Positions 9,465 to 63,612 are shown, counted from the first letter of the stretch. The stretch: 64,000 bases of DNA from Octopus vulgaris (GCA_951406725.2 OX597816.1:45198001-45262000); one strand, 5' to 3'. Numbers and translations: made by a program. Notes: a model not told the origin generated them from the sequence alone.

Positions 9465-9747
9465 TGTATGTATTTATGTATGTATGTATATATATATATA
9501 TGTATGTATATATATATATATATATCTCAATGGATGAATGAATTTACCGTTAACATGGAAAATATGTTTACCGTTAACATGGAAAATTCAATAAACCATT
9601 ACTAGGGTAGCAAAATTCACGTCAGAAACACGGTTGAAGCGACCTATCCAAAGGTAGAAACTCCGGGTTAGTGTGCAGTAATTTGTGTGTTATAAATGAA
9701 TAAATAAATAAATGGAGTTGAACGAAGATGTTAATAAAATTCTTTTA

Positions 9748-9828
9748 CTTTCGACATATGTTTCGAAGACAACATGGTTTTATTCCAAAGGAATAAACGG
9801 TGTATATGCAATCTTCTCATCAGGAAAG
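9748..9828 (-). ncRNA. Type I hammerhead ribozyme motif (inverted twin of 9890-9971)
   Basis: Reverse-complement copy with the same intact core and stems. Confidence 0.8.
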
Positions 9829-9889
9829 AAAGAGAGCCTCTCTCAACAACAATTGTTATAACGTCTTGTTGTTGAGAGAGGCTCTCTTT

Positions 9890-9971
9890 CTTTCCTGATG
9901 AGAAGATTGCATTTTACACCGTTTATTCCTTTGGAATAAAACCATGTTGTCTTCGAAACATATGTCGAAAG
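9890..9971 (+). ncRNA. Type I hammerhead ribozyme motif
   Basis: ctttc-CTGATGA-gaaga...tcttc-GAAAC-atat-GTC-gaaag: intact core, 5-bp stem I, extended stem II, palindromic short stem III; predicted cleavage after C9966. Confidence 0.8.
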
Positions 9972-10025
9972 TAAAAGAATTTTATTAACATCTCCGTTCA
10001 ACTCCATTTATTTATTTAATTCATT

Positions 10026-10071
<46 letters not shown>

Positions 10072-10453
10072 AATCGAATGCATCTGTGGAAATTAATACC
10101 ATGCAAACAGAGGAATTTAACTGATTGCATATATATGCAGATATCCATTTGCTTGAATGGTACTATGCTGGTGGTATTAACTTTATTGGCTTTTTGTGAA
10201 GTGACACATTTTAATATATTGAACTGTTTAATATATATGCCTGCATTGAGTGTGAGTGTGTCTGTTGTGGTTTCTTGATGTTGGTTGAGGAGCTGTGGCG
10301 TTCAATATGGAACATTATTGTGTTTGTTGATGTATATTGATTTATATTGTTTATATTGTATTATTGTGTATATGTATATATATGTAAGAATATGAGTATG
10401 TATGCACTCATATTTATATTTATATGTAAATTATTTTAGATTTGTACTCATAC

Positions 10454-10585
10454 TTGCATTAGAATCTCCGAAGAGGCCGTAAGATATTCTTGTTAATGTC
10501 TCATTTATACCTGCAATATATGGCTAATAGGTTAAATGAAACATACCTATCTTCATGGCCGAAACAGCTGTCAGTTATAATGTAA
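10454..10585 (+). ncRNA. Hammerhead-like motif with U4C core variant
   Basis: ttgcatta..ct-CCGAAGA-ggccgtaagata...tatcttcatggcc-GAAAC-agct-GTC-ag..taatgtaa; palindromic stem III ACAGCTGT. Confidence 0.6.
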
Positions 10586-10762
10586 ATGTATTTTTATATC
10601 TTGTATTTATTTAGTTATATCTCACCATATTGATTGTAATTATTGTACTGTATTAATGTCTAATCTCATTGCTATTGTGTAGTGTTTTAATAAAGTATAT
10701 GATTCGGTATTATCTGATAGTTGATGATTGATTTAGATATATTTCTCCATTTTCTCATTTTG

Positions 10763-10800
<38 letters not shown>

Positions 10801-10801
<1 letters not shown>

Positions 10802-15238: not shown

Positions 15239-15444
15239 AATAATAAATATTAGGGAATAAATCCAAATTTACAGGGAAAAAAATCAGATTTAGGATTAAA
15301 TCCAATTTTATAGTAAAATATTATATAATATTAATTAGAGACAAAACCACTATTTTGCAAAACAATATTGACTTTTTATTAAAATTTTATGTATTGATTA
15401 AGTCTTTCCTTGTTTGTTTTGCAAAATAGTGGTTTTGTCTCTAA

Positions 15445-15498
<54 letters not shown>

Positions 15499-15650
15499 CT
15501 CGTGTGGCAAGAAGCTGTGCTTCCCAACCACATGGTTTCAGGTTCAGTCCTGGAGCACCTGGAGCAAGTGTCTTCTACTATAACCCCAAGCCAACCAATG
15601 TCTTGTGAGTCAATTTGGTAGATGGAAACTGAAAGACGCCTATCATTTAC

Positions 15651-15692
<42 letters not shown>

Positions 15693-16247: not shown

Positions 16248-16323
<76 letters not shown>

Positions 16324-16671: not shown

Positions 16672-16757
<86 letters not shown>

Positions 16758-16839
16758 CATACGTACACACACACACATACATGTATGATTTCTGCAAAGA
16801 AGGTTGCCATGGGCAACACACTGCAATTTCTGGCATCAC

Positions 16840-19208: not shown

Positions 19209-19210
<2 letters not shown>

Positions 19211-19422
19211 GGAGTAAACACATAAATGTGAAACAAGGTAGAAAAAACAGTACTCAAATACCAGTGGTAGAGTAATATGCTTTATTTAAAGCACCAGAAA
19301 ATTCAACAAAACCTGTTACTCTGAGTTTCATGTTCCCGTTCGTTGGACAGTTTTGTCCGACGAACATGAATGTGAAACTCAGAGTAACAGGTTTTGTTGA
19401 ATTTTCTGCTGCTTTAAATAAA

Positions 19423-19423
<1 letters not shown>
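19209..19423. mobile_element. Small fold-back element in the (TA)n tract of a SINE
   Basis: Palindrome 19280-19423 plus one-sided extension; same family recurs inverted at about 27527-27690. Confidence 0.65.
19353..19390 (+). ncRNA. Minimal hammerhead-like motif with U4C variant, inside a palindrome
   Basis: ttgt-CCGACGA-aca tgaa tgt-GAAAC-tcaga-GTA-acag; degenerate inverted copy at about 19313-19350. Confidence 0.5.
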
Positions 19424-20429: not shown

Positions 20430-21025
20430 ATAATAGATTTACTTTGAAGACATTTTCAGATGTGTTCTTTTCTAGAGTTATACAAACAGGACAATCAAGA
20501 TCCCATAGAATATGGTTTTACAAATTCTTCACTTAAAGCATGTGATGTATGATATTTATCATCCTTCAGTTTCTAAATGTACTGTGAAAGAGTAGTGATG
20601 GAAGGGAGTTGGCATTTCTATTCTCTTGGTTCCATAAAGAATATGTTTATTGTATACACCAACTCTTAAAGGTGCATTCAGTTAAGCCGAAATAAATTTG
20701 TTCACGGTAGTCTACAAATTTCGTTTTAGCACAATAGACCTCATGGTGAGATGATATTGGTACAGCTACATTGGAATTGATTACATGATGCAAATCTGTT
20801 ACTGTATTTTATTCCGTAGAAGATGGAAATCAGATTCTTGATGTATCTAGAACAGATGTAACTTACATGCAAGCATAACATCATCACTCGGTTTAATTCA
20901 CCCTGTAGTCTGGGTGTAGCAGCCAATATCACAAAAGCTTATATAAATCTAGAACAGAAGTATTTTCCCACTGGCCATAGACACCAGAAAAAGCTTCAAC
21001 AAAAATTCTCTGAAACTTCTTTACT
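20430..21025. mobile_element. Decayed Penelope-like (GIY-YIG) retroelement fragment with internal inversion
   Basis: Plus 20871-21025: NIITRFNSPCSLGVAANITKAYINLEQKYFPTGHRHQK/FNKNSLKLLY; minus from 20866: VSYICSRYIKNLIS...CSC...YFGLTECTFK...KPYS; resembles the PLE linker and GIY-YIG region. Confidence 0.65.
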
Positions 21026-23099
21026 AATCTTGGCTTTATATTTTACCATCTCCATTTGCTCCTAATATCAAATATATTTCAATTTTGTTGTTTATTATTC
21101 TTTTAATCCTATAAAACTTCCTAATTACCATCCCCATCGCACACAGTCACACACACACGAATTCAAAAATACACTTTCAGTAACATACATTCAAACTTAC
21201 TGACAATATACTAAGCTCATCTCAAGGAAAAGATATCAAATCTAATTTCAAAGAAAAAGAAACCTCTGGAATTTATTTCCAATTCACTATATGCCTGCCT
21301 CATCAAGTAACACATCCAAACACACAAATTCACAAACACATCCAAAGCTAAATGACAAACATTTAAAATTCTTCAAACAGGTACGGCTGTGTGGTTAAGA
21401 AGTTTGCTTTGCAACCATGTAGCTCTAAATTCAGTCCCACTGTGCTGTACCTTGGGCAAGCGTCTTAAATTATAACCCCTGGCCAACCAATATCTTGAGA
21501 GTGAAGCTGATAGATAGAAACTGTGTACAAGCTCATCATGATCATCATCATTCACATTTAATGTCCATCTTCAATGTTGGCATGGGTTGGACAGTTTGAC
21601 AGGAGCTGGCCACTTGAAGAGCTTCCCAGGCTCCATGTCTATTTTGGTAAGGTTTCTATAGCTGGATGCCCTTCCTAATGCCAATATATCTATATTTATG
21701 TATGTGTGAGTCTTTGTGTTTGTATTTGTCTCTCCCATCTCAGCACTTGAAAACAAGTGTTGGTTTGTTTTCATCCCTGTGGCTTAAAGGTTCTACAAAA
21801 GTGGCTGAAAGAAGAAGTACTGGTCTTAAAAAATAAATAAGTACTTGGGGTTGAAAACCCTTCAAGGAATTGCCCCAGCATGGTCATGGTCTAACGACTG
21901 AAGAAAGCAAAAGTAACAAAGTAAAGCATAAAGCCAAAATCAGAATCAAAAGTATCCCTAATAAGGTAAAATTAAACCAATCAGCTTCCCCCACACCACT
22001 GTTTAGGAGCCTCCCAGCCCCTACACACCATCCCTGAACACTGTGTAAGCTTTCTGCTTACCAAACACTTTATCAACTGATAAAGTGTTAGGAGGCAGAA
22101 TTTATTGACCCCCGAAAGGATGAAAGGCAAAGTTAACCTCAGCAGAATTTGAACTCAGAACAAAAAGACAGATGAAATGCCATTAAGCATTTCGCCCAGC
22201 ATGCTAACAATTCTGCCTGCTCACTGGCTTGATAATAATAATAATAATAATAATAATAATATATTCATGTATGTATGTATAAATAGCCAGATAAGTACAG
22301 ATAGATCTATATTTGTCTATATGCGCATGCACACTTACACTCACACACACACACACACACATGCACACAGACGCATACACACTCAAATAGGTACACACAT
22401 ATCATCATCATCATCATTTTTAAGCCCACTTTTCCGTATTCGCATGAGATGGATGGAATTTTGATGAGGAAGATTTTCTACAGGTGGACGCTCTTCCTCT
22501 CCTCAACCCTCGCCCAATTCTAAGAAAGGTAATAGTTTCTCCACAACTGCATAATGTTTTCACAGAAGATTGAAAATGAGAGACATCATTTGCATGTATT
22601 GTGTGCTGCCGAAGCCAAGAGACAGCAACATGCATGCACAGGCACACACACACACAAGATGGGCTTCTTTCAACTTACATCTGCCAAATCTATTCAGAAG
22701 GCTCCGGTTGGCCTGGGGTTATAGCAGAAGATGCTTGCCTAAAGTGCCACACAGTGGGACGGAACCCAGAACCATGTGGTTGGGAAGCAAACTTCTCACT
22801 ACATAGCCATGCCTGTAGAAAATTCTTGTGTTAGCGTATAGATGGGTGTGCGCATATAAATATGTGTGTGTGTGTGTGTTTCAAAAATTTTACAAAAACA
22901 TTACAAACTGAAAATTCATACCATATTCCTCATCAAATTTCGGGCCTTTAACATTGAAATTGTTCACTTTTGGTGTTGCCTGTGGCAGAAAGCCACTGGG
23001 AATAGCTAACAAATATGTGTGTTTGTGTGTGTATATATATATATGTATATATATAGATATATATATGGGTGTGTGTGATTGTGTATAGAAGAATATATT

Positions 23100-23418
23100 A
23101 ATAAAAGGAATTCCAACCTTGTCTGATTTTCACGTTTGATTTACAATCTTATAATGATATAATATAAGATAATATAATATAATAGAATAAAATAAAATAA
23201 TTTTTGACTGTCAAAAATTGTGAAGCATGACTGTCACCGCTACTACATGAACCTGAAGATTGCATAATTTAATGCATGAAAGTACTAGTTCAATCAGAAT
23301 GAACATTTAACATTCTACTATTTTATTTTATTCTATTATATTATATTATCTTATATTATATCATTATAAGATTGTAAATAAAACGTAAAAATCAGACAAG
23401 GTTGGAATTCCTTTTATT
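23100..23418. mobile_element. Fold-back element with about 100-bp inverted arms and central hammerhead, next to (TA)n
   Basis: Arms 23100-23199 / 23319-23418 (aataaaaggaattccaaccttgtctgatttt...). Confidence 0.7.
23248..23292 (+). ncRNA. Minimal type I hammerhead ribozyme motif
   Basis: tgaac-CTGAAGA-t-tgcat aattta atgca-t-GAA-AGTACT-A-gttca; intact core, perfect 5-bp stem I, palindromic stem III AGTACT. Confidence 0.75.
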
Positions 23419-23419
<1 letters not shown>

Positions 23420-23480
<61 letters not shown>

Positions 23481-27526: not shown

Positions 27527-27528
<2 letters not shown>

Positions 27529-27687
27529 TTTATTTAAAAGCAGCAGAAATTCAACAAAACCTGTTACTTGGAGTTTCACGTTCCCGTTAGTTGAATTTCT
27601 GCTGCTTTTAAATAAAGCATATCACTCTACCCCTGGTATTTGAGTACTCTTTTTTTCCACCTTGTTTCACATTTATGTGTTTACTCC

Positions 27688-27690
<3 letters not shown>
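27527..27690. mobile_element. Second, internally deleted copy of the 19209-19423 family, opposite orientation, in (TA)n
   Basis: Shares ctttatttaaa(a)gcagcagaaattcaacaaaacctgttact and the tgtttcacatttatgtgtttactccgg end. Confidence 0.7.
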
Positions 27691-30473: not shown

Positions 30474-30474
30474 C

Positions 30475-34100: not shown

Positions 34101-34976
34101 GTCAACTGGAGCAATGCAGGAAAGGGAGCCCAAAGTTGAGAGCAGTGGAGAAAAGTCATTGAAGAAGTAACAATCTATTTAACCACATAAATGCTTCACT
34201 ATCAACTAGAAGGGGTCAATGCTGAACCTTTCAGTATTTATATCCTTTGCATTTCTGTGCTATCAGGTCAAGGAATGATTCTCTAAGAAACTCTTTCATC
34301 ATCAGCATTTAGTGTCTGCTTTCCATGCTGGTATGAGTTAGAGGGTTTGAGTGAAACTGTTAAGCTGGAGGGCAACAACGGTTCCAATCTGATTTGGCAT
34401 AGTTTCTACAGCTAGATACCCTTCCTAATGCCAACCACTCCAAAAGTGTAATGGGTGCATTTTACATACCAGTTATGTGACACTGGCATCAGCCATGACT
34501 ATAATTTCACTTGGCTTGATGGGTCTCCTCAAGTACAACATATTGTCAAAGGTCTAAGTCACTTTGCCATGTAATTTTTATGGGAGGATATAAAAGAGGT
34601 TTCTGGTTGCTAACTTTTGGGTATTTATTTACGAGTAGCCATCTTGTTTGCTGAATGCAGGCAAGCTCACTGCACACATCTGAGCCCTCAGAAAGTAAAA
34701 AGTCAGAACAAAAGCCTCCAAACATTTTATCCAACACTCTAAAGTTCCCATCGATCCACAGAATCAATAATAACGATAGAAAAAATGTAAAACAAAAACA
34801 GAAGTTAGAATTGAAACTCAAATTAAAATTCAATAAAGTAACTGAAACTTAAATTCATTTTTTTTTTCATAAATTTCAATAAATATTATCTTTAAACCAA
34901 ATTGTTTTTTTTTTTTTATCAGAATCAGATTTCAATTACATATCTTTTCTTCAACATGATTTTGCTTTCAGTTCTA

Positions 34977-35274
34977 TATTTAAGAGATGAGGAATTATAT
35001 ACATTATTTACATATGCCCATGGGCATATGGCATAGTGGTTAAGAGCGTGGGCTACTAACCCCAAGATTCCGAGTTCAATTCCAAGCAGTGGCCTGAACA
35101 ATAACAATAATAATAATAATAATAATAATAACATCGTAATTTCCCCAAGACACCTGAAGAAAGCTGGAGGGTATATCAGCCGAAACATTGTGTTAACAAC
35201 AGACAAGATGAGGACAAATATCCGTCCAATGTAAATAATGTAAATAATGTACATAATTCCTCATCTCTTAAATA
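34977..35274 (+). mobile_element. Chimeric tRNA-head SINE with hammerhead-bearing tail and 36-bp inverted terminal arms
   Basis: Arms 34977-35012 / 35239-35274; A box (tggcatagtgg) and B box (gagttcaattcc) from 35022; (AAT)n linker; hammerhead-like motif 35149-35194. Confidence 0.65.
35149..35194 (+). ncRNA. Minimal hammerhead-like motif, partly degenerate
   Basis: gacac-CTGAAGA-aagctg...cagcc-GAAAC-ATT-gtgtt; stem I gacac/gtgtt, stem II gctg/cagc; stem III looks like a mutated ACGT palindrome. Confidence 0.55.
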
Positions 35275-38254
35275 CGCTCCAGGTATTTAAAGGCTTTAAT
35301 AAGCATTATCAGCAGTAAATTCACAAAATAGTTGAATCATTGAACAAAATATTGTATAGAACTGCATTATCTAATTGGTACGGAGCCGCCAGCATGGCCA
35401 CAGTCAAATGACTGAAACAAGTAAAAGAGTAAAAGAGTAAGTTAGTATAAGTTGGACAGGGTGCCAGAGACCATTCACTTCTAGGTATGAGTAAAGGTGC
35501 ATGGCTTAGTGGCTGGGCTATTCAATTCATGATTGTAAAGTCATGAGTTTGAAAACTGGTGGCGCACTCTGTCCTTGAGCAAGTCACTTTATTTCATGTT
35601 GCTCCAGTCTACTCAGCTGGCAAAAATGAGTAATGCCTGTAATTCCGTGTCACATTGCATCTCTCTATACACATGTCTGTGGAGTGCTCAGCCATCATCA
35701 TCATCATCATCATTTAACGTCCGCTTTCCATGCTAACATGGGTTGGACGATTTTGACTGAGGGCTGGTGAACCAGATGGCTGCACCAGACTCCAATCTTG
35801 ATGGCAGTGTTTCTACAGCTGGATGCCCTTCTTAACGCCAACCACTCTGACAGTGTAGTGGGTGCTTTTTACATGCCACCGGCACAGGGACCAGTCAGGC
35901 GGTATAGGCAATGACCTCGCTCGAATCTTTTTACACATGTCACTGGCACAGGTGCCAGTAAGGTGACGTTGGTAGCGATCACGCTCGAATGGTGCCCTTT
36001 TACATGCCACGGCATGGGGGTCAGTCAGGTGGTACTGGCAATGATCATGCTCGAATCTGCATGTTAATTTCATGGGCAGGCTGTTTTGGAACCCACGTCA
36101 TCATAACCAATGGAGTACCCGTTCTAGATATGTCAGGAGACCACAACTTGCTTGTATATTTTATTTTGACAATAGGTTTCTCAGTGTGAATGCTCTTCCT
36201 ATCACCCACTACTTTACAGAGAGTATTCAGCACATTTTATCATGGCACCATCACTAAAGGAGCTGTCATATCCTCAGTAACATAGCATACCCCACTCTTT
36301 ACAATACATTTTCTTCACTTATTCACGAATCACATAGACATAAAATTAGTAAATATAATACAATAGAGGAGTCACTCCAAAATGCTCTAAATATAGTCTG
36401 TTATATATGTTCACCTTGGACTAAATTGATCAATGATCTTTAACACAGAGTAAATATATGACTGTGTAGCTGAGAAGCTTGCACTTACGGGATTTAGGCT
36501 TCAGTTAAATTTTTTCTGCAAAAGCCTCATTTTAGTCAACAAGTTCCAGTCTGATTTGGCATGGTTTCTGTAGATAGATGCCCTTCTTAATGCCAACTGC
36601 TGTACAGAGTTGTTGGGTGCTTTTTATATGGCAGCACAGGTGCTTTTTATGTAACACCAGTACAGGTAACTTTTATGTGCACCAACACAGGTACTTCTTA
36701 TATGGCACCAGCATGGGTGTATTTTACATGGCATCAACACTGGTCCCAGGTAACTTTTATGTGGAGCCAGCACAGGTGCTTTTTACATGGCCTTGGTAAG
36801 GGGCTCTTGCAAGGCAAAACCCCCTTCAGCTGGGATGGGAGCATTAACAATTCTGCTATTATGGATGGGGCTTCACAGCAACAGCAAGGTGCCAGATATT
36901 TTGGGGTCCTTTTGACAATAAAAGAGCATTTGACAATTAAAATATTTGGTTCAACAAAGTTACTATCTGACTCGTTACACGCATGGAAAAATGGACATTA
37001 AAATGATGTTATATATCAGACAGATAGGGGAACAGAAAGATTCTGCTAACTTCCAAGCATCACATCAACTAGAAATAGAGCAAAAGGCCAAAATTGAAAC
37101 AGTCTTTCTTTTAGATGATCCTAAAATCGTAAAGGTGATGATGACCTTTACTGAAGATTTTAGATATCAACGAGTTAAGCTTCCCCGCCTACTTTGAAGA
37201 CCAATCTTTTTCAATAGGCTGGGTATAATTAGTGAATAACAGCCTTTGATTCACCAGCTACAAACACGAGCCAATTGGGAATCATCTTTGCAGTTATTCA
37301 TACTGCCAAATCTCGCTTAAATCACATGCTACCATCATAAAATTATAAGGAAATATGGGAAACATAACCCTACTCAAGAGAGTTATGCTTTGGTCTACTT
37401 CATCAGGAATGACCTGATCAAGCAGGTCTATGATCAAAGGATTCCAACACACACACACACACACAGATACAGGTACACACATGCACACACACACATATAC
37501 ACACATGCACACACATGTATTGACAAACTAGAAACAGAAACACTAAAGACAAGATAGAATGACCCAGGATGACCAGGACATAGAATGGTTTGAATGAACA
37601 ACAGAACACACCTGAGTGAAGAATGCAAATTTAAAAAACAAAAAAAAAAACTGTGGTTAACGACCTTGCTTTGCAACCACATGGCTTTGGGTTGGTTCAG
37701 TCCCACAGTGGTTCAGTCCCCATGAGCAAGCATCTGCTACTGTAGCCTGGGCTAATCAATACTTCATGAGTAAATTTGGAAGATGGAAACTGTGTGGAAG
37801 CCGGTTGTATATAAGTATGTGAGTATACAAGTGTGTGTGTGTGAATTTGTAGTTGTCACCACCACCACCACTGCTGTTGGTTTGTTTATGGCCCTGTAAT
37901 ACAACAGTTCAACAAAAAGAAAACCTACAAAATATGAACCTGACTTTAAAAATTAAGTCTTAGGGATCAGGTTAATCCCTCAAGGTGGTGCTCCTGCATG
38001 GCCAGGGTCCAACTATTAACACAAGTAAAATAATTTTAAAAAAACATAAATTATGGCCTTTAGATATTGGAAATTCTAACTGCAAAGTTAGTAAAATATA
38101 AAAACAACAGGTGAAATTTTCAAATGAAGTCTCATTTTTGTTATCTAATATATTTTATACTTCTTTTTATGCTGACCAGCTTTGATAATGGACGGAGTCA
38201 ACAACTTACTCGAAGAGGTTGCAAGACGCAATGAAAATTTCAGGAAAAAATAAA

Positions 38255-42664: not shown

Positions 42665-43250
42665 ATGAGTGGCTGTGTGGTAAGTAGCTTGCTTACCAAA
42701 CACATGGTTCCGGGTTCATTCTCACTGCATGGCATCTTGGGCAAGTGTCTTATACTATAGCCTCGAACCAACTAAAGCCTTGTAAGTGAATTTGGTAGAT
42801 GGAAATTGAAAGAAGCCCATCGTATATATGTATATATATATATATATGTATGTGTGTGTGAATGTTTGTGTGTCTGTGTTTGTCCCCTCAACATTGCTTG
42901 ACAACCGATACTGGTGTGTTTACGTCCCCATAACTTAGCAGTTCGGCAAAAGAGACCAATAGAATACATACTAGGCTTACAAATAAAAAGTCCTGGGGTT
43001 AATTTGCTCAACTAAAGGCAGTGCCCCAGCATGGCCACAGTCAAATGACTAAAACAAGTAAAGGAGTAAAATATATACATAGGCGCAGGAGCGGCTGTGT
43101 GGTAAGTAGCTTGCTTACCAACCACATGGTTCCGGGTTCAGTCCCACTGCGTGGCATCTTGGGCAAGTGTCTTCTGCTATAGCCCCGGCCGACCAATGCC
43201 TTGTGAGTGGATTTGGTAGACGGAAACTGAAAGAAGCCTGTCGTATATAT

Positions 43251-43284
<34 letters not shown>

Positions 43285-43663
43285 TTGTGTGTCTGTGTTT
43301 GTCCCCCTAGCATTGCTTGACAACCGATGCTGGTGTGTTTACGTCCCCGTCACTTAGCGGTTCGGCAAAAGAGACCGATAGAATAAGTACTGGGCTTACA
43401 AAGAATAAGTCCCGGGGTCGATTTGCTCGACTAAAGGCAGTGCTCCAGCATGGCCGCAGTCAAATGACTGAAACAAGTAAAAGAGTAAAAGAGTAATAGG
43501 CGCAGGAGTGGGTGTGTGGTAAGTAGCTTGCTTACCAACTACATGGTTCCGGGTTCATTCCCACTGTGTGGCACCTTGGGCAACTGTCTTATACTATAGC
43601 CTTGGGCCGACCAAAGCCTTATGAGTGGATTTGGTAGATGGAAACTGAAAGAAGCCTGTCGTA

Positions 43664-43706
<43 letters not shown>

Positions 43707-43976
43707 TTGTGTGTCTGTGTTTGTCCCCCCAACATCGCTTGACAACCGATGCTGGTGTATTTTCATCAACGTAACTTAGCAGTTCATTTGACTGCGGCCA
43801 TGCTGGAGCACCACCTTTAGTCAAGCAAATCAACCCCAGGACTTATTCTTTCTAAGCCTAGTACTTATTCTATTGGTCTCTTTTGCCGAACTGCTAAGTT
43901 ACGGGGATGTAAATACACCAGCATCAGTTGTCAAGCGATGTTGGGGGGGACAAACACAGACTCACTAACATACACA

Positions 43977-44162: not shown

Positions 44163-44479
44163 TGGAATTTATAAATATTTAATACAACACTACGTACATT
44201 TCCACAGATCAGATAATTTTAACACCAAAGTTGGTATCCTTGGGATTAGTACAGCACAGCCCATATTATCGTGTGCATCAACAAGGATCCATTTCATCAG
44301 GCGATACTGTATCATTGGAAGAATCACAGAGGGATGTTTATCCCATCTTGCCAGTATGAGGGTCAATCTAGCTGTATAATCTATACTGTACTAATCCCAA
44401 AGATACCAACTCTGGTGTCAAAATCATCTGATCTGTGGAAACTTATGTCGTGATGTATTAAATATCTATAAATTCCATC
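44161..44479. mobile_element. Fold-back element with about 95-bp diverged inverted arms and hammerhead-like motif
   Basis: Arms 44161-44254 / 44387-44479. Confidence 0.65.
44186..44305 (-). ncRNA. Hammerhead-like motif with long stem II insert
   Basis: Minus strand atcgc-CTGATGA-aatggatc...gatctgtg-GAAAT-gtac-GTA-gtgtt; the other arm keeps GAAAC-ttat-GTC-gtgatg. Confidence 0.55.
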
Positions 44480-44679
44480 CTGTTATTATTGTATTTATCC
44501 CACATTACATCGGTATAACAATGATGCAACTCCGAAAATCTAACTCGCTAGTCAGTATCATTAAACGGTAGCTGGCATAATGAAATAGGAGCTCTATTTG
44601 CATGCCCCTAATGTTACTTAAATGAATTTAAAAGATATGTGTGTACAGTATCAAGCAAAAAATGAGAACGATTAATAAT

Positions 44680-48930: not shown

Positions 48931-51854
48931 ATATATATGAAAACACACTTCCTCTCATTGTGCTTATGAGGCACAGTTTTAGCATTCTTTACTAACATTT
49001 TCCCATAGTATTTTTAGGAGATTTTATTCATTTATTACTATTATTTTTTTCTTTTGTTTTCCTAACTATTAACTCATATCTACCTCTTTTTTTTAAGGTC
49101 TTTTCTTCCACTTTTTATTAGATGTTCTGCTTTTTATCAACATTAGTAGTCCTATATTTTTTTTTCATTGTATTTATTTTCGCTCATTTTTTTTTTTCAT
49201 GTAACCAGTATCACAATCTCATCATCTACCTCACACCCCACTCACCTTTTCTTCTTAAAGCAAAAGGAGGGGATAAAAATTTTACGCTTCCATACACTAA
49301 CTTGCCATTGATGATGAAAACGTTAGCAGCAGGAAGAATACACACACACACACACACACACACAATGTGTGTGTGTGTGTGTGTTTGTATGATGATTTCA
49401 CAGTGATGTGAATGGCAATTAAGTAGAAAGTGTACTCAATATTGCCAGATAGAGCGGAATAACATTATTTATTCAAAGCTGAAGTTTGAAGGAGTCACTA
49501 CTGAGAATTTCTTGTTCCAACACACAGGTGACTGTGTATGTCTGTGTGTGTGTATTACATGTAATATATATAGTGATATGTAAAGATAAGATCCAGGAAT
49601 CAGAGTGTAGGAAGTTAGTAAGTTTTTAGCAGTCTGTAGAAGGTATAAAAAAACAATTTTCAATAACAATAGTGGTTTATTGACATATAAGGTTGTAAAT
49701 TTTTCCCATATCAAAGTTTGATAAGCTGGAAAAAGTTATTTCATAGTTCACAACTGTGAATTTTAATATATATATATATTGGGTTGGTGCAGAATTATTG
49801 CAGCTTTTTTTCAACAAATTTTATTCAACAAAAACAATAACAGTATTTAACAAAAACATCTTTAAATGATGCTCTGACCGTTTGCCAAACAAATGGGAAG
49901 CAGTAATTGAAGTAGATGGTGAATATGCTCCAGAATAATCATTTAAAAATGTTTTTTTATTAGATGTTGTTATTGTTTTTGTTGAATAAAATTTGTTGAA
50001 AAAATATATATATATATATATATAAAATGGGACAGTAACGCAAAACATCCGGACCGCTAGTTGATAGAAAAAGGGACAACAAAACATCTAGATAGACGAT
50101 ACAAAGACAACAAGGATGGGTCATTCGAAGTTTTCTTTCCTCAGTCAAGCACCAGATTATCCTCGCAATTTCAGATGATTATTCTTGAGATTGCTTGAAT
50201 CTGGCCAGCCCCAAGGAAAAACTAAGCTAAGAGTATTAGGTTCCTGAGAAGAAAGCAGTGAATAGATAACAACACCTTCCATGGGTGAAGACCACTTTTA
50301 ACCTGAGGTGCCAGTGTTTTTCCTTTCCCTGCCCACAGCCTTCAGCGCTTGAGATTTTTATAGAGAATCCATTTCTGGTCACCAATCACTATTCAGTCCA
50401 AAAAAGGTTCATTCGTGAGATGTGACAGCAAAGAAGAGCAAACATTCACTCTCTCCACATGATTTGACTTGGAAAGTTTGTGAGGAACCCATTGACCCAA
50501 TTTGCTGACTTTTCTGATGGCAGGCAGGTGCTAGTTCCTCAACAGTTACAATGGGATTTTGTTCCATCAGGGTTTGCAAGACATCCTCATTGAGCTCTAC
50601 AGATCTTCCAGATGAGGCTCAATTCTAGGCAGTAGCTTACAGCTCAGAATTCCTGGAACCACTGTTGACACTGGCTTACACTTATTGTCCAATCCCCCAT
50701 ATACTGCATTAATATTCCTCGCACTTTCCGTTGTTCTTGCCTTTATTCAACTCATAAAGCAAAATATGCCGAATATGCTCCTTTGTCACTTCCATTAGAG
50801 CTTTGAAAAAATTAACTGTTAAAATCGAACTGCACTCTTCAAAACTTGCACTAAGAATAAGGCAGGGAAATATTACTACCTGCTTTTATAGCAAGTTGAT
50901 GCAGGTAATTTATCCTGTCCCCATTTGTAAGTCTAGAACTTTTTCTATTGGTCTCTTTTGCTGAACTACTAAGTTACAGAGACGTAAACACACCAACATT
51001 GGTTGTCAAGCGATGGTAGGGGGACAAACACACATGCACATAAATATATAAATATGTGTGTATATATATATATACAACAGGCTTCTTTCAGTTTCCATCT
51101 AAGAAATCCATTCACAAGGCTTTGATCATCCTGGGGCTATAGTAGAAGACACTTGCCCAAGGTGCCATGCAGTGGCACTGAAACCAGAACCATGTGGTTG
51201 GGAAGCATGTTTCTTCTTATCACACAGCCATGCCTGCTAGCAAAATAAATTAGCTAAATTTTATAGGCAGAAGCATAGCTGTGTGGTTAAGAAGCTCATT
51301 TTGCAACCACATGGTTTGGGGTTCAGTCCCAGTACATGGCACCTTCAGCAAATAGCTTCTATTATAGTCACAAGTCAACCAAAGCCTTGTAATTGAATCC
51401 GGTAGACAAATAATGTGTGGAACCTGTGTGTGTGTGTGTCTTAGAGTTTGCATTTGTCACCTTTTCCACCACTTGACAACTGGCACTGGGGTGTATACAC
51501 TTCCGTAACTTAGCAGTTCAGCAAAACAGAACACTAGAACAATTACCAGACTCTTAGAAAATAAGGACTGGGGTCAAATTGTTTGTCTAAATGTTTCAAA
51601 TAATAGTTTAAGGCAGTACTCCAGCATGGCCATAGTACAATGATTGAAACAAGTAATAAGTAAAAGATAAATCAAGACACAAAAAAATACGCAGAAAACA
51701 TGCCCACAAATGTATAAGATTAGGGGAAACATTTAGAAAAGGTCCAAGAAGCACAAAGAACACTTCAGTGACCCATTGTGGCCTAGACAAACCACTTATT
51801 GTCAACCCCTGTCCTAGAAGCAAGATGACTTAACCTTTTCCTAAGCATATGTAT

Positions 51855-56134: not shown

Positions 56135-56165
<31 letters not shown>

Positions 56166-57095: not shown

Positions 57096-57162
<67 letters not shown>

Positions 57163-57414
57163 CGTGTGTGTGTGTGTACGTTTGTGTTTATGTGTACTCT
57201 TGTTTCAACATCCTGTAATGGTTGTCAATTAGCATAACCATCATACAAACAATGTTATTCATTTCCAGTCTCCAATGGAAAGTATGTGTGGCCAGGAGAG
57301 ATATTACTTTGATTGGAAACAGGTGAGGTTGGCATCAGGAAAGGCATCCAGCCATAGAAAAATCTGCTTCAATGAATTTCATGTGACTCAAGCATGGGAG
57401 AGTGGGAATTAATA

Positions 57415-57455
<41 letters not shown>

Positions 57456-58089
57456 CAATGATGATGATGATGATGACGATGATGATGAGGATGTTGATGA
57501 CCATGTAAAACCATAATGCTCTTAGCACAATGCATTTAATGCTCCTAATAATGGCTATGCTCATAAGCCAAGCCACCAATCCAATATCTATGAAAAGTGA
57601 CAAGAGTGCCAAGTACTAAGACAGTCTGTTATGCAACTGTAAAAATTACTGAATCATGTTCACTTGATTGTAAATGCAATACAGGAACAATTGTTTTTTG
57701 AGCTGATGTTGTCACTGTCCTTCAAATTCAAAAACATTTCAAATTATTCAGAAGCAAATGTAAGAAATACTATAAAAGTTATTAGGTGAATCAGAAGTTC
57801 TTTTTAATTTTCTAGTTAGAGAAACACCACAGCTCTATCAAACTATGTGGGGCATCTGCAAGAGACACCTACGAATTTTAAAATGTCATTATATATCTTA
57901 GCTGCCAATGACAAATATATTAATAGAAATTCACTAGTAATGTCTAATGAGAAAACATTTCAAATATCCACAAAATCACCAGACATTTTAAGCTGCAAAA
58001 ATTGAGTTAATGCCTGTCACTCAGAAGACAAGTTTTAATTGCATTATAACGGAAAGGCATTCAGATTGGATTAATTCATTACATATAGA

Positions 58090-58310
58090 TTACTCTTTAC
58101 TCTTTTACTTGTTTCAGTCATTTGACTGCGGCCATGCTGGAGCACCGCCTTTAGTCGAGCAACTCAACCCCGGGACTTATTCTTTGTAAGCCTAGTACTT
58201 ATTCTATCGGTCTCTTTTGCCGAACCACTAAGTGACGGGGACGTAAACACACCAACATCGGTTGTCAACCAATGCTAGGGGGACAAACACAGACACAAAC
58301 AAACACACAG

Positions 58311-58371
<61 letters not shown>

Positions 58372-58545
58372 CATATATACGACGGGCTTCTTTCAGTTTC
58401 CGTCTACCAAATCCACTCACAAGGCTTTGGTCAGCCCGAGGCTATAGTAGAAGACACTTGCCCAAGGTGCCATGCAGTGGGACTGAACCCGGAACCATGT
58501 GGTTGGTAAGCAAGCTACTTACCACACAGCCACTCCGCCGTCTAC
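58090..58545 (-). mobile_element. Family A SINE
   Basis: Full-length reverse copy. Confidence 0.8.
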
Positions 58546-58805
58546 AGATTGTTTGCACTGCCAGAAGTTAATCCATTGACATCAAGATGAGGTCAACAGA
58601 AAAACTCCAAGTTGTTCAATTACTGCTGCATCATCTGGCCACATTGAAGCTTTCACCATCAACATCTTTTAAGAAATGCCTTCAGTCATCAAAAGCATTC
58701 AGCACTAAAACCCAATTGAATAATAGCCACCTTGCTGGCTTTTGTTCAACACATATGCTACTGAAGACAGGAAAATGTCATGCTTTGCATGTGATCGGAT
58801 GAATA

Positions 58806-59681
58806 CGAGGTCTGATCAATAAGTATCCAAACTGTTGCCATAGTAACGAAGCTAAAACATGCAGAGTGAAGCTGCTTGGCAGAAATTGATCGTGAACTCT
58901 GTTGTGCATGCACACAAAGTTTTAATATTCTAGCTTACTTCCACTGTTTACAGCAGTGCTTTGAAGGAATGTATGTAGCATGTAATCATTGCATTGACCA
59001 TGACAAGTTGTCATGGCGATACCTGCTCAGAGGCCAACACAAAGTTGAAGAAAGTGTATGGAGAGGGGTGTATGAGCCACACACTGGTTTAGACGTTTCC
59101 AAGATGATGAAAAAAATGTCGATATTCACGAACATTCTGGGAGACCAGCAACCTGCAGAACTGAGAAAAACATTGCAGATGTGCATGCAGCTGTGAGGGT
59201 AAATTGTCGAATCACCACCCTGTGAGTTATCAGAGGATGTACAGATTAGTTGCAGTTCAGTTCAGTCCATTATCACTGAAGATTTGTGTATGAGATGCGT
59301 CTCTGCCAAGTTTGTGCCAAAACTGCTTTCAGCTGACCAAAAGGACACTTGGATTTCAGTTGCATAAGATCTCCTTGATTGTGTTGAGAAAAATGAAAAC
59401 GTTTTAAAAACATTGTGTAGGTCTCTGAGAAGGTATCGCCAAGCTTTTGGCAAAATTTGATGCAGATTCTCTCCTCTACTTTCTCTGTCATGGTCAATGA
59501 GATGATCACACATTACACACCTTCCTTCCAAGCACTGCTGTAAACAGTGGAAGTAAACTAGAATGTTAAAAGTTAGAGCACATGCACAGCAGAGTTCAAG
59601 GTCCGTCTATGCCAAGAGGCTTCACTTGCATGCTTTAGCTTTGTTACTATGACAACAGTCTGGATACTTGTTGATACCCTG
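58806..59681. mobile_element. Mariner-derived element with about 200-bp inverted arms
   Basis: TA-flanked; arms about 58806-59005 / 59485-59681; transposase N-terminus MTEKVEERICIKFCQKLG on minus strand. Confidence 0.7.
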
Positions 59682-59683
59682 TA

Positions 59684-60246
59684 TTGGGTTGTCCGGAAAG
59701 TTTGTGCTGATTTATAGTAGCTTACCTTTCGACTTATTTTAGAACATGGTTGAGTCCATAAAATAGGATTTCACTACACCTCCATTTAGAGCACAGTTTA
59801 AGCTATCTTTTGGTAGAAGGTTTATGTTCCTATAACCTGTGGTAATTCTGTAATCCTTTAAAATGGAAGATAAGAAAGTTCCTTTTCGGCACTTGATGCC
59901 TTGGGAATCAGACAAAAATTGCTGCAGCTCGGCTGGAATGTGTTACCCCACCCTCCATATTCACCAGATAGTGCTCCTTTGGATTTCCACTTATTCAGGT
60001 CTCTGCAGAATAGTCTTAATGGTAAAAATTTCAATTCCTTGGATGACGTAAAAAGATACCTTGATGAATTCTTTGCCAAGAAACCACCTCAATTCTGAGA
60101 AGAGGGTATTTTCAAGTTAAAGGAAAGATGGTTACACATTGTGCAACAAAATGGTTCGTATTTGGTTGATTAAAAATGTAATGGCAAGTATTTATTGACC
60201 TTTTTCTTTCCTTTAAAATTTGGCACGAACTTTCCGGACAACCCAA
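59684..60246 (+). mobile_element. Internally deleted mariner
   Basis: TA|ttgggttgtccggaaagttt...aactttccggacaacccaa|TA TIRs; LGWNVLPHPPYSPDSAPLDFHLFRSLQN motif. Confidence 0.85.
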
Positions 60247-60339
60247 TATATTGGTATCATCGTCATTATCATCATGTCTTTGTCATTATCATCATGTCAT
60301 CATCATCATCATCATCATCTTCTTAAATACACTTTTCCA

Positions 60340-61230
60340 TGTTTTCAATGGTTGTCTGCATCTTCTTCAGCTTAGCATATCACCACTTGTTGCAACTTTT
60401 GCCAGCTCTTTTGTAATGTTCAATTTTCACTACTTTTATCTTCCCTAGATTTCTCCTGCAAGTTCATTCCACTTGGATCACTTCACCTTTTTTTCTTTTT
60501 ACCAAAATGTAATCCTCCATACACTCCACATGTCCATACCATTCCAATTTTCTCATTTACATATTACAGCAGTTTCCTCTTAAACCCAGTTTTTTCTTAC
60601 AAATAATTTTTTTTCAACCTTTCACACATCCACTGCATTCAATGCTTGTGCTCCACTAAATACAATATTGAACTTTGTATACAGTCCACCTTCACATGGA
60701 GAGAGGGTCACATTTTTACCAGCAGGGATGATAGCTTCCAGAACTTTGCCCACTCCATCCTAACTCTAGATAAAAACCACTCTCTCTCTCTCATTCTCTC
60801 TACCACTTATATAAGCCACATAACAGAAGTTATCAACTACTCCTAGAGAACACTCTGAGTATGGTCACTCTTACTGCTAACTCCTGCATGAGTTTGCTTG
60901 TTATCTGATTACATAACTTGTACATCTATTGAACATACTGTTCAGTATTCCAAATTACTCCTTTTCTGTATATTGAACATAGCCACTTCCTGATAGCAGT
61001 AGAGTATTGTCTTCTTTTCTGTTAAATGAAACTTTTGGCACTGCTTTGTTTACTTTAAGACATCTCAACTATTAGCTTTGCTTTCACATCTAGAATATTT
61101 TTCTCTAATTTTACAATAGGTTCAGTTATGAACACTGATCATCAGCATGGAGAAGTTACTTTGAACACACTGTCTAAAACTCATCAGTTATGGCCTGGCA
61201 AACAATATGAATAGAAACTGAAGCCATCAG
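60340..61230 (-). mobile_element. Old decayed RTE LINE fragment
   Basis: Degenerate QAITDEF...LLHADD matching the RT region of the young copy. Confidence 0.55.
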
Positions 61231-61289
61231 CCTTTGCGATCAAAAAAATATAAAAGAAAGAAAGAAAAAAGCATAAATAACATAAGAAA

Positions 61290-62050
61290 AATTTTATTGA
61301 ATCTATCCTCTGACAGGGATGCATTCAATCATGCTTCAGTCTAACAGTGCACACACTACTTCAAAGAAAAATTATACTATGCGGAACAAATCCTTCAAAG
61401 AAGTAGAACTCCAAACATACATCATTTGATTGAACACATTTTAAAGCAGGAGAAGCATGAGTATAACTAGAAATGTCCTGTCATTCATAAAAACAAAAAA
61501 ACATTTCCCTACTAACCATAAATATCACAAGTTCTTTAATGAGAAAATGTAAAAGTCAGCTACAGTTACATGTTTAAAATATCACAACCAAATATCCAGT
61601 TGTAATTGACATTATAAAGCAACAAACATGAAATAATCGCATTGTAGTGGAATTACAGCAACTGCATATCTGGACATTTTGATACAAAAAGCACCACTAA
61701 AACACCAGTATATAAAGTTAGTATAACATCTCCATAGGGTTTTGAAAAGAACTACATGGGACGGACATATGGAGAATACATTTAAAAGCAAGCATACTTA
61801 TTCCTTAATATTCCAAGATAAATAAAATCAACTACACTATATCAATATGTTTCAGAACTGAATTGTTACCATCCCTACAATCCTGTCAATTGCTGAAATC
61901 AGAACACTATATTGCAAGGGATGACAATGAAGCAACATATCTATAAAAGAACCACTAAATGGATAAATATGTCATTTAAAAAATATATTTTATTTAACCC
62001 ACTACACCTAACTTATAATATGTTGTAATAACAACAGAGTAAATAGATCC
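61290..62050 (+). mobile_element. Highly decayed Penelope-like fragment
   Basis: Frameshifted KHFPTNHKYHKFFN..KVSYSY and YMGRT..ENTFK motifs. Confidence 0.5.
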
Positions 62051-62715
62051 TCTTCAATCAACATGAAACCTGAAATTCGCAAACCACGAAGCAAATTCCA
62101 TACAACCAGTGTAACGGACAACTCAAATTGTTACACTGGACACACATGCACAACATTTTCTCATCGATTGACCATGCATTTATAATAAGGAAATAGTGAA
62201 GCTCATTATGATACAGAGCACAGAATATAATTAATTAGAAAACCATTAGTTGATAGCACTGCTGTTATATAAAATTAAAATATAAAATCAAAATATTGAC
62301 TATGGAAGCTTCTACAAACAATTAGAACTATGGAAGCTTTACTAATAGCAAATACAAATCAAAAATTAAAATAGGTACCACACGTTTATATCATGAAATT
62401 TAGTTAGTCATAGCTCTCTTACTCTTTTACTCATTTCAGTCATTTGACTGTGGCCATGCTGGAGCACCACTTTTAGTCGAGCAAATCGACCCCAGGACTT
62501 ATTCGTTGTAAGCCTAGTACTTATTCTATCAGTCTCTTTTGCCAAACCGCTAAGTTACGGGGACGTTAAGATACCAGCATCGGTTGTCAAGCGATGTTGG
62601 GGGGGACAAACACAGACACACAAACATATACACATGCATACATCATCATCATCATCATCGTTTAACATTCGTTTTCCATGCTAACATGGGTTGGACATAT
62701 ATATATATATATGTA

Positions 62716-63612
62716 GGCTGGCCAGATTGGAGCAATCTCAAGATTAATCAGCCAAAATTGCGACGATGATCCGGTTCTTGACTGAAGATTGAAAGCTTTC
62801 TATGTCCCGTCCGTGTTTTTTGTGTCATCATCAAAATGTTTTGCGTTCTTGTCCCAGTTTGTATTTTTTATACATATTTTTTGTACATATATATATAGCG
62901 GTGTACGTACCCTCTCTCTTATATGTAATTACACATTTCTCTAAACTCGGTACAACTCAACAGTCTCTCTCCCCCTCTCCTACATTCATTTGCCTTTCTT
63001 TGCACTTCACTTTGTCTCTGTCCCTTTTTCTCGCTCTCTCTTTTCCTCCTCCTTAATCCCTTGTTCCTCTTTTTCTCTCTCTTCTCCCCCTCCTTGATTC
63101 CTCTGTCCCTCTGTCCCTCTTTTCCTCTCTCTTCTCTTCACACACGACTGACTGACCGACTGCTGGCCTTTCGGGCCTAGCAGCCGTCGCAGTAACACCA
63201 ACATTTATTTTCTCTGCCCCAAGGCATATTCCTAACACGCCAGATAAGCTTAATTCATCCTAGTTGAAAGATGCCTGTTCGTGATGTCCTGTTATTGTTA
63301 TTAATATAATTACCATTGTTTTTACGTATTATCATTATTGTTTTTACGTATTATTTTTGTATTCATATTCGTATAACATCGTCCGTTTTTCTGTCCTTGT
63401 TTTGTATACATTCGAAGCCTTCTTCCAAGGAATCTAATGCACTTAGCTGGGGCTGGCCAGATTGGAGCAATCTCAAGATTAATCAGCTGAAGTTACGAGG
63501 ATGATCCAGTTCTTGACTGAAGATTGAAAGCTTCATATGTCCCGTCCATGTTTTTTGTGTCGTCATCTAAATGTTTTGCGTTCTTGTACTAGTTTGTATT
63601 TTTTATACATAT
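62716..63612 (+). mobile_element. Non-coding element with about 160-bp direct terminal repeats (pLTR-like) inserted in (TA)n
   Basis: ggctggccagattggagcaatctcaagattaatcagc... repeated at 62716-62876 and 63451-63612; diverged minus-strand relative at about 50026-50270. Confidence 0.7.

Follow-up and report, generated by a model that had tools for sequence, protein, structure and literature searches.

Hammerhead-bearing repeats in an Octopus vulgaris locus: truncated ends of Penelope-like elements and a probable tRNA-headed SINE with a Poseidon-type 3' end

A 64,000-nucleotide stretch of Octopus vulgaris DNA (the window) raises the question of what its short hammerhead (HHR) repeats are and by which enzymes they were copied. 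A preliminary description had listed six HHR elements (E1 at 9.5 kb, E2 at 10.1, E3 at 19.2/27.5, E4 at 23.1, E5 at 35, and E6 at 44.2 kb) and two further ones without a clear core (E7 at 15.3 kb and E8 at 62.7 kb), and had ascribed them to Penelope-like elements (PLEs). The PLE origin turned out to be right for all eight elements. The density of about one element per 10 kb did not hold, as the eight families contributed 32 insertions to 800 kb of random DNA, about one per 25 kb. Genome searches gave 253-5,165 candidate copies per family, and the locus sets used here are the best 40 scored of hundreds to thousands of candidates in each.

The HHR motifs in the window elements are real. E1 carries a perfect type I HHR on both arms (+9895 and -9823; stem I 5 bp, stem II 6 bp, stem III palindromic). 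A strict HHR descriptor matched the window twice, versus one match in 30 shuffles, leaving the window copies of the five other HHR elements (E2-E6) unmatched; in 80 random 10-kb regions it gave 18 matches in 10 regions versus 0-2 per shuffle (10 shuffles). Column counts over copies showed an intact HHR with palindromic AACGUU in the E5 family (the window copy is CpG-decayed), an intact core in E4 with U.U at the stem II base in 13/13 copies, an intact majority core in E6 (the window copy decayed), U4 to C in 13/20 copies of E2, with a weak stem I, and U4 to C in 13/17 copies of E3. The earlier observation is confirmed in part, with the perfect fold in E1 and with family cores from column counts, those of E2 and E3 being mostly U4C. 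Of the two elements listed without a clear core, E7 folded back before reaching the HHR and E8 has no canonical fold. No hammerhead appeared among the 150 of 419 Rfam matches listed for the whole window, or in two targeted Rfam scans. Conservation of core over flank, which had been suggested as a check, came out divided (core columns higher in three families, equal in one, lower in two), and we gave it little weight because dead copies drift neutrally. Minimal HHRs of metazoan PLEs have been described as type I, with a base bulged before stem II and a stem III that is small and palindromic; most occur singly or as opposite-strand pairs 100-700 bp apart, and they were ascribed to truncated PLEs (Cervera and de la Pena 2014, PMC4209133); the window HHRs share the type, bulge, stem III and arrangement of that account.

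The features outside E5 and E8 are as follows.

9527..10028 (9527-9852 minus, 9866-10027 plus): E1, two head-to-head arms from a Hydra-like PLE 3' end, each with a perfect HHR
10069..10765, plus strand: E2, last 0.7 kb of a long Hydra-type PLE 3' UTR, variant HHR at 10468-10572
15250..15452, no strand assigned: E7, fold-back PLE 3' end, turned before reaching the HHR
19209..19423, no strand assigned: E3, Hydra-type PLE 3' end in fold-back form, with a U4C variant of the core
20450..20760, minus strand: weak, frame-broken remnant resembling an endonuclease (EN), motif words by eye only
23067..23420, no strand assigned: E4, Neptune-type PLE 3' end in fold-back form, with its HHR core at 23253-23287
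27528..27689, no strand assigned: second copy of E3, tip with most of the HHR core absent
44166..44480, no strand assigned: E6, fold-back of a Hydra-like PLE 3' end, older (copies about 80% alike), core at 44294-44300 on the minus strand
57739..58041, plus strand: Hydra-type EN remnant, absent from the preliminary description, E 7e-8 with our own HMM
61690..61960, plus strand: weak, frame-broken EN-like remnant, earlier placed at 61.3 kb, motif words by eye only

E1-E4 and E6 are 5'-truncated PLEs that show the inverted arm known from the literature and insertion into (TA)n (weak or absent in E6). We read them so because their genomic copies run 5' into ORFs of the Hydra/Neptune-type GIY-YIG EN; an RT/GIY-YIG ORF lies in cis upstream of the HHR end in all five families (RT itself in E4 and partly in E2), and the 5' ends of the relatives are scattered. 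Their description as short, non-coding, non-autonomous and retrozyme-like was therefore wrong, as the relatives continue into PLE ORFs. The E2 relatives L171 and L172 stay collinear over 3,937 nt (95%) and reach an ORF that carries the CxCX5C linker; the E3 relatives L189 and L204 have at least 1,483 nt upstream in common, and the ORF of L314 carries CxCX5C, so that E2 and E3 show the linker and (TA)n insertion of the Hydra clade. The E4 relatives L118, L129 and L174 have RT and EN ORFs with a Neptune-type CX2-5CxxC linker before the C-terminal EN (DKG in L174) and, alone among the upstream ORFs, Pfam support (GIY-YIG, E 3.7e-6); the Hydra-like ORFs gave no Pfam match. The E1 EN is without the CxCX5C linker, yet it is 60% identical to a DKT-bearing ORF. 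The E6 relatives L176 and L177 have 784 nt in common that end EN-like (tblastn E 7e-15), the linked ORF being a fragment too short to score CxCX5C or DKT, and the E7 relatives L241 and L196 have the HHR just upstream of the part matching E7.

Inverted arms had been noted in five of the six HHR elements, which we also saw, with none at 10.1 kb. Across the families the inverted arm with one-sided terminal extension was found in 19/29 (E1, where the query was biased toward fold-backs), 34/53 (E3), 6/21 (E4), 8/16 (E6) and 2/19 (E2) insertions; in E1 and E3 the fold-back occurs at varying points. The association with (TA)n stood for E1 (24/25), E2 (15/19), E3 (43/46), E4 (15/19) and E8 (20/24) and was weak or absent in E6 (4/16) and E5 (6/77), against a background of 9.4%; one control SINE had (TA)n at its end in 62/105. 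Hydra/Neptune-clade PLEs have a C-terminal GIY-YIG EN with DKT and CxCX5C (Hydra) or CX2-5CxxC (Neptune), an HHR close to their 3' end, insertion into (TA)n, truncation at the 5' side, an inverted 5' copy and one-sided extension (Craig et al. 2021, PMC8557442), and E1-E4, E6 and E7 fit this description, the CxCX5C and DKT motifs aside in E1 and E6. They differ from the PLEs described there in long 3' UTRs (about 2.6 kb in E2, 1.2 kb in E3), in the length of the one-sided extension (66 nt in E3 and about 130 nt in E1 versus 30-40) and in the U4C cores of E2 and E3.

The PLE remnants named earlier at 20.4 and 61.3 kb have EN-like words by eye only, the second sitting at about 61.7 kb, and neither gave a tblastn or HMM match. 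Seven PLE proteins had no tblastn match in the window; with the EN HMM the reversed window, used as a control, had a best E of 0.28.

The six elements had further been proposed to be retrozyme-like mini-elements mobilised by PLEs, which would be processed into circles by their HHRs. Non-LTR retrozymes are tandem units each with an HHR and have no Pol III head in the published descriptions (PMC7761336; bioRxiv 10.64898/2026.07.22.740005), and E1-E6 differ from them in not forming such tandem non-coding units: in the window all six lack a tandem arrangement and, counting relatives, none of E1-E4 and E6 is a tandem array, one E1 locus with two units (L027) being the exception. The real HHRs, the high copy numbers, the locus L238, where the genome does hold a true array of tandem HHRs, and the ORF-less tandem E8 speak for the proposal, which the ORF links of five families with scattered 5' ends largely refute; the U4C core of E2 and E3 also counts against it, as does the fact that E5 5' ends are not enriched where the HHR would cut, and we regard it as extremely improbable for the six.

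62714..63610, plus strand: E8, repeat-body-repeat unit of about 730-nt period, without ORF, in (TA)n

For E8 itself non-autonomy is supported by this ORF-less tandem, with no same-strand ORF upstream in 20 loci plus two extensions. It has HHR-like half motifs in reversed order (GAAA before CUGANGA) and no canonical type I HHR fold in 21 segments; a permuted hammerhead was considered and dropped, having no supported fold. Chlamys non-autonomous PLEs such as MRC1 (PMC8557442) are, like the non-LTR retrozymes, non-coding derivatives of PLEs with the same terminal repeat as their parent, and E8 and the L238 array resemble these and the non-LTR retrozymes, E8 without a canonical HHR.

E5 has another architecture, a unit of about 270 nt (270-351 nt) made of a tRNA-Arg-like head with A and B boxes, (AAT)n, a minimal HHR and a PLE 3' end.

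34969..35013, minus strand: short inverted copy of E5's own 3' end (blastn, tail positions 139-182)
35015..35026, plus strand: 5' boundary with a native palindrome and a leader that the parent PLE 3' UTR also has
35022..35095, plus strand: tRNA-Arg-like head, matching a tRNA-Arg gene from this genome at 48/74 positions
35100..35131, plus strand: (AAT)n spacer, followed in the window copy by a gap of about 34 nt relative to the family tail
35150..35193, plus strand: minimal type I HHR, core at 35154, GAAA at 35182, stem III decayed here
35194..35275, plus strand: PLE 3' end, including most of the one-sided terminal extension of about 30 nt

The head scored 60 against tRNA-Arg, with a shuffled maximum of 44.5 (30 tRNA loci, not all isotypes). 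We take the A box to be 35029-35039 and the B box 35072-35083, placed by consensus; both are retained in the majority of 69 heads, and stem III is palindromic in most copies. ARAGORN called no tRNA in the window, the head included, and Rfam gave no tRNA family for the head in the targeted scans or the window matches listed. Head and tail form one unit, as 28/30 head-picked loci carry the tail downstream, 22/30 tail-picked loci have a head match within 500 nt, and 6/6 heads in 800 kb of random DNA are accompanied by the tail. The earlier reading of this element was probably right as to non-autonomy and failed as to (TA)n; its tRNA-like head and the link to a Poseidon-type ORF had been overlooked.

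Four loci on four contigs (L060, L182, L325 and L399) join E5 to the end of a Penelope/Poseidon-type ORF with the same ORF-head junction, and in L060 the order is RT, thumb, EN, stop, head, HHR. The E5 unit begins about 30 nt after the stop of the parent ORF, and the entire unit, 3' end included, is shared with the parent in the four loci; these make up 4/66 rows, and whether or not a copy is linked to the ORF, its head and tail have the same sequence. The homologue P0001, 61% identical to L060, shows DKG, YVDD and an EN at the C terminus and lacks the CX2-5CxxC linker, and by the motifs of the two the parent would belong to Penelope/Poseidon (C-terminal EN with CCHH, no CX2-5CxxC linker, DKG). 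L060 is broken and 5'-truncated, and the loci recovered include no intact full-length parent. When 147 upstream regions of E5 were screened using two proteins of PLEs and a pair of EN profiles, only L060 and one unrelated match came back, and no locus among them has the E5 tail behind another ORF or without the head. None of 30 genome Pfam GIY-YIG loci, nearly all Neptune-type, matched E5. A further candidate parent, L386, was rejected, its diverged match being an old broken E5 copy.

SINE heads usually originate by fusion to the tail of a partner. This, and the rarity of ORF-linked copies, would suit an order of events in which a SINE with a tRNA head and some PLE tail came first and later joined or replaced the Poseidon-type 3' end, its true partner perhaps being another PLE. 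The identical junction in the four ORF-linked copies and the lack of an E5 tail with a different ORF or no head in the 147 regions argue against this order, which we consider improbable and which would alter the sequence of events only, leaving the mechanism of a PLE-driven SINE unaffected.

E5 is short, non-coding, dispersed and of high copy number, as SINEs are: nine insertions per 800 kb of random DNA give about 31,500 copies (14,400-59,800). Its 5' boundary is sharp, with 29/30 5' ends within 14 nt of the head start and sequence continuing at least 30 nt past the head in 1/30 head-picked copies versus 23/27 for E3 (Fisher p 7e-11). The insertions bear PLE-type ends instead of the target-site duplication and simple-repeat tail of LINE-type SINEs. 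A head-to-head arm occurs in 34/79 E5 insertions versus 3/113 and 4/72 for two control SINEs (p 1e-12 and 5e-8), and all 34 pairs combine an arm ending at tail position 172-182 with one ending at 131-158, one-sided ends that match the PLEs described by Craig et al. (PMC8557442). Of 11 copies, 7 had a usable 3' end, and none of these showed a convincing target-site duplication.

A native 5-bp palindrome lies exactly at the 5' boundary and 38/62 head-start rows fold back there, because of which a reverse-transcription stop could explain the boundary. E5 would then be no separate SINE: a long parent PLE RNA would be copied until the RT stops and snaps back at the palindrome, the tRNA-like insert being a passenger of the 3' UTR. 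The palindrome is present in ORF-linked copies too, the identity of ORF-linked and ORF-less copies in head and tail agrees with this, and no Pol III RNA was seen in RNA-seq of a related organism (unstranded and fragmented), in which E5 reads lie on both strands alike, show no pile-up of ends, and continue into the flanks in 86-87%. Yet in 24/62 rows, which terminate at the head start or close by, there is no fold-back on the head, 29/30 copies would have to be halted by a hairpin of 5 bp, the A and B boxes are kept in most heads, no T4 run occurs inside E5 (5/5 full-length copies), and fold-back in E1 and E3 takes place at scattered points. We rate this reading as less likely than a separate SINE, though a serious rival to it.

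Our best reading is that E5 may have arisen inside the 3' UTR of its parent PLE as a Pol III SINE mobilised by PLE enzymes. Transcription by Pol III would begin several bases upstream of the head and read through the whole unit, which has no internal T4; the PLE RT-EN protein would recognise the 3' part and copy the RNA, and the inverted arm would result from a fold-back of the cDNA end. In the RNA being copied the minimal HHR presumably stays uncut, because its loopless stem III would need a second copy. Against the reading counts the hammerhead fold of an E5 dimer, at -19.5 versus -30.0 kcal/mol for the minimum-energy dimer. None of 137 E5 arms starts at the predicted cut site, and E5 copies as cleavage products were rejected for want of such a 5'-end peak. 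On the whole we find it rather probable that E1-E4 and E6 are 5'-truncated PLE ends and that E5 is a Poseidon-type 3' end with a tRNA-like head, likely transcribed by Pol III and likely reinserted by PLEs as a SINE. The fuller proposal is put forward tentatively, at a little under an even chance: that a tRNA-derived Pol III promoter in a Poseidon-type PLE 3' UTR spawned a SINE of about 270 nt and about 30,000 copies, moved by PLE RT-EN and not by a LINE, a pairing so far undescribed, and that the SINE is a minimal substrate made by nature, with the HHR region as an uncut recognition element.

Among known systems, E5 can be compared with the SINE-like elements Sm-alpha/Sj-alpha of Schistosoma, which carry a hammerhead behind a tRNA-derived Pol III promoter, have copy numbers in the tens of thousands, are often tandem with copies liberated by cleavage, and have no PLE parent named in the accounts cited (PMC6765202, PMC2770079). 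E5 shares the tRNA-like head before the HHR and the copy number; unlike them it is dispersed, monomeric or head-to-head, collinear with the end of a Poseidon-type ORF and apparently copied uncut. The account of metazoan minimal HHRs in PMC4209133 describes no tRNA-headed form. Helenus, Ajax and Cassandra carry small-RNA promoters within their LTRs (PMC10886601) and resemble E5 in having a Pol III-type small-RNA sequence within a retroelement's terminal repeat; they are LTR elements with no hammerhead, and that paper does not mention Penelope. The octopus SINEs OK, OR1 and OR2 are tRNA-derived (Ohshima and Okada 1994, as cited in PMC4758252 and PMC4824008), OR1 and OR2 being cited as CORE-SINEs, and E5 is likewise a tRNA-headed SINE-type repeat of octopus, a likeness by description.

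E5 aside, the finding is an ordinary one and a caution, in that a fold-back hammerhead hairpin in (TA)n is in most cases the end of a truncated PLE. Our search, which covered published papers, found no report of a PLE-driven tRNA-headed SINE. SINEs are generally taken to be LINE-driven. If true, a tRNA-headed SINE with PLE scars and a PLE parent would extend the SINE-LINE partnership to PLEs and would suggest a route of SINE birth from within the partner element. Further, the function of the HHR in EN-bearing PLEs has been called unclear and an in vitro PLE system needed (Craig et al., PMC8557442); with a 270-nt E5, apparently uncut through tens of thousands of copies, whether the HHR acts as a catalyst, a recognition fold or neither would become testable.

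E5, a unit of about 270 nt at 35 kb in the window, runs from a tRNA-Arg-like head through (AAT)n and a minimal hammerhead ribozyme motif (HHR) to the 3' end of a Penelope-like element (PLE). Compared with 30 tRNA loci, not with all isotypes, the head is identical to same-genome tRNA-Arg genes at 47-48 of 74 positions (score 60-60.5, shuffled maximum 44.5 in 200 shuffles), and neither ARAGORN nor Rfam called a tRNA in it. Among 30 loci chosen by the head alone, the tail lay downstream in 28, only in the inverted arm in one and was absent from one; among 30 chosen by the tail alone, 22 gave a head match and 8 were truncated copies. All six heads in 800 kb of random DNA were accompanied by the tail, and the 9 insertions in that DNA indicate about 31,500 copies (14,400-59,800). 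The DNA data sets that contain E5 carry six different organism labels.

The parent of E5 came to light when we screened the DNA upstream of E5 tails (147 regions). In the recovered locus, L060, an RT, a thumb and a GIY-YIG-type endonuclease (EN) are followed by a stop and, roughly 30 nt later, by the E5 head, its HHR and its end; the locus is truncated at its 5' end, where it has an inverted arm. On three other contigs (loci L182, L325 and L399, the last drawn from the random sample) that ORF end likewise precedes the E5 head; 4/66 head-start rows are ORF-linked, some loci giving two rows. At 61% identity, L060 resembles P0001, an RT-EN protein of 582 aa from ENA that has DKG, YVDD and CCHH residues and lacks the CX2-5CxxC linker, which is the Penelope/Poseidon pattern in PMC8557442. 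Among named proteins, one of Octopus sinensis is nearest to the parent ORF (78% identity), and octopus publications therefore served as background for the analysis.

The 5' boundary of E5 is sharp, as only 1/30 head-picked loci ran at least 30 nt past the head, versus 23/27 past E3's own anchor (p 7e-11). Moreover, E5 carries PLE scars: 34/79 distinct insertions are head-to-head, versus 3/113 (p 1e-12) and 4/72 (p 5e-8) in two control SINEs. Each of the 34 has one arm that reaches tail position 172-182 and one that stops at 131-158. One-sided extension of this type also occurs in E1, E3 and E4. No target-site duplication was evident in the 7 usable copies of 11.

We propose that Pol III would start just upstream of the head, that the parent RT-EN would reverse-copy the uncut RNA and that the cDNA end would fold back. 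Arms starting at the predicted HHR cut site numbered 0/137. Being loopless, stem III cannot form within a monomer. For the dimer, the hammerhead fold (-19.5 kcal/mol) falls short of the stability of the minimum-energy structure (-30.0 kcal/mol), which makes even cleavage as a dimer uncertain. A T4 run was absent from 5/5 full-length copies. The main rival is that reverse transcription halts at a native 5-bp palindrome at the 5' boundary, where fold-back occurs in 38/62 rows but not in the other 24. As for a Pol III start, RNA-seq data from a related organism contained 6,233, 4,918 and 4,377 E5 reads of 12.9, 12.0 and 11.5 million, with equal strands, 86-87% continuing into flanks and no pile-up of read ends found; it shows read-through of E5 and is compatible with either side of the question. 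In L033, A>G differences at 1557, 1636 and 1666 (10-33% of RNA reads, near absent in a DNA set from another organism) may reflect either A-to-I editing in fold-back copies or divergence between the species.

E1 (9.5 kb), E2 (10.1 kb), E3 (19.2 and 27.5 kb), E4 (23.1 kb) and E6 (44.2 kb) had been described as short non-autonomous mini-elements. Judged from related loci, they are truncated autonomous PLEs, since their relatives continue 5' into PLE ORFs. The genome that contains the window (2.8 Gb, 227 contigs) gave 253-3,196 candidates per family, of which the best 40 were scored and 20-30 loci fetched. E1 copies L019, L020 and L028 extend into an EN ORF, and other copies end at scattered 5' points. 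For E2, L171 and L172 align collinearly for 3,937 nt at 95%, reaching back into an ORF with a CxCX5C linker; for E3, L189 and L204 have at least 1,483 nt of upstream sequence in common, and L314 has a 243-aa frame with CxCX5C. In E4 loci L118, L129 and L174, frames for RT and EN carry the Neptune linker (Pfam match to GIY-YIG, E 3.7e-6), and the 784 nt common to E6 loci L176 and L177 start in EN-like sequence (E 7e-15). Frames termed Hydra-like, which Pfam did not recognize, are so assigned by the motifs of Craig et al. (PMC8557442) and mutual similarity. According to that source, PLEs insert at (TA)n, are truncated 5' and bear an inverted 5' copy, and one of their ends is extended by 30-40 bp; Cervera and de la Pena (PMC4209133) treat dispersed minimal HHRs, some in opposite-strand pairs, as truncated PLEs. 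Most of the elements in the window are of an already known kind.

Several other structures were also observed. Adjoining an E2 copy, L171:183-4737 is a head-to-head duplication (about 2 kb, 99.5%) of a Hydra-like RT-EN ORF with DKT and without the CxCX5C linker. L308:1245-3587, L309 and L310 represent a young, probably recently active Neptune-type family; open frames of 781 codons are numerous in it, and a frame of about 330-380 codons overlaps them from upstream. Frames directly 5' of the truncated E1 ORF (L175:3740-5353) are, by their motifs, presumably of a Helitron-like helicase. Different PLE families also frequently adjoin in one (TA)n tract (E1 by E2 at window 9527-10765; E4 by E7 and E3 by E7; loci L126, L196 and L182), consistent with repeated targeting of one site.

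E7 (15.3 kb) is a fold-back turning before its HHR. E8 (62.7 kb) is an ORF-less unit of about 730 nt in partial tandems, with no same-strand upstream ORF in 20 loci and two longer extensions, and its HHR-like halves stand in reversed order. Diverged relatives (L114, L239, L267) retain this order. None of 21 segments gave a canonical hammerhead fold, and the motif is possibly a rearranged or decayed ribozyme. The features are as follows.

Window 63396-63560 and 62714-62890: E8 conserved reversed motif, GAAA ... CUGANGA, with several hairpins.
Window 50080-50213, minus strand: additional E8 fragment, missing from the preliminary description.
L238:2097-4768, contig G000:C1 near 20.00 Mb: head-to-head tandem array, 359-nt unit.
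Window 42667-43785: 422-nt tandem, 2.7 copies, starting with a common SINE ((TA)n-ended in 62/105 insertions).

The young L238 array has seven units 97-99% alike, each with a perfect HHR, a longest frame of 68 aa, flanking (TA)n runs and diverged relatives in L142, L026 and L024; by its sequence it is a true non-LTR retrozyme-like array.

The preliminary observation was partly confirmed and its interpretation partly supported. Five elements carry inverted arms, as claimed. A perfect type I hammerhead is present on each of the two E1 arms; the rest of the window copies show decay or variation. Within-family column counts, over 83 distinct arms for E5 and 20 for E6, show an intact core and palindromic stem III in both families; they also show U4->C in E2 (13/20) and E3 (13/17) and a U.U pair at the stem II base in E4 (13/13). 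The counts gave no consistent excess conservation of core over other columns, the check proposed earlier. A strict descriptor found 2 sites in the window, both E1, versus 1 in 30 shuffles; among 80 random 10-kb regions, 10 contained sites, 18 altogether (7 from a single array), versus 0-2 per shuffle (10 shuffles). Association with (TA)n held 3' of E1 (24/25), E2 (15/19), E3 (43/46), E4 (15/19) and E8 (20/24), but was weak or absent 3' of E6 (4/16) and E5 (6/77), against a 9.4% background; one control SINE was likewise linked (62/105). That E5 does not target (TA)n fits the absence of the CX2-5CxxC linker in the parent-type protein. The E1-E8 families together gave 32 insertions per 800 kb of random DNA.

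Schistosoma Sm-alpha, according to reviews, joins a tRNA promoter with a hammerhead (PMC6765202, PMC2770079), PLE derivatives without coding capacity are known (PMC8557442, PMC7761336), and so are small-RNA promoters inside terminal repeats of LTR elements (PMC10886601). In searches of open full-text literature we found no tRNA-headed SINE collinear with a PLE 3' UTR and bearing PLE scars; the E5 family may already be catalogued in Repbase, Dfam or subscription papers. A 2026 octopus repeat annotation (PMC13282606) counts 190 PLE families and, among recently active SINE families, 893 that are unclassified, and 'hammerhead' is absent from its supplement. Further, the parent EN region (L060:524-1518) is 60-74% identical to many ENA proteins (P0001-P0119), which would suggest horizontal transfer should their hosts be only distant relatives of octopus.
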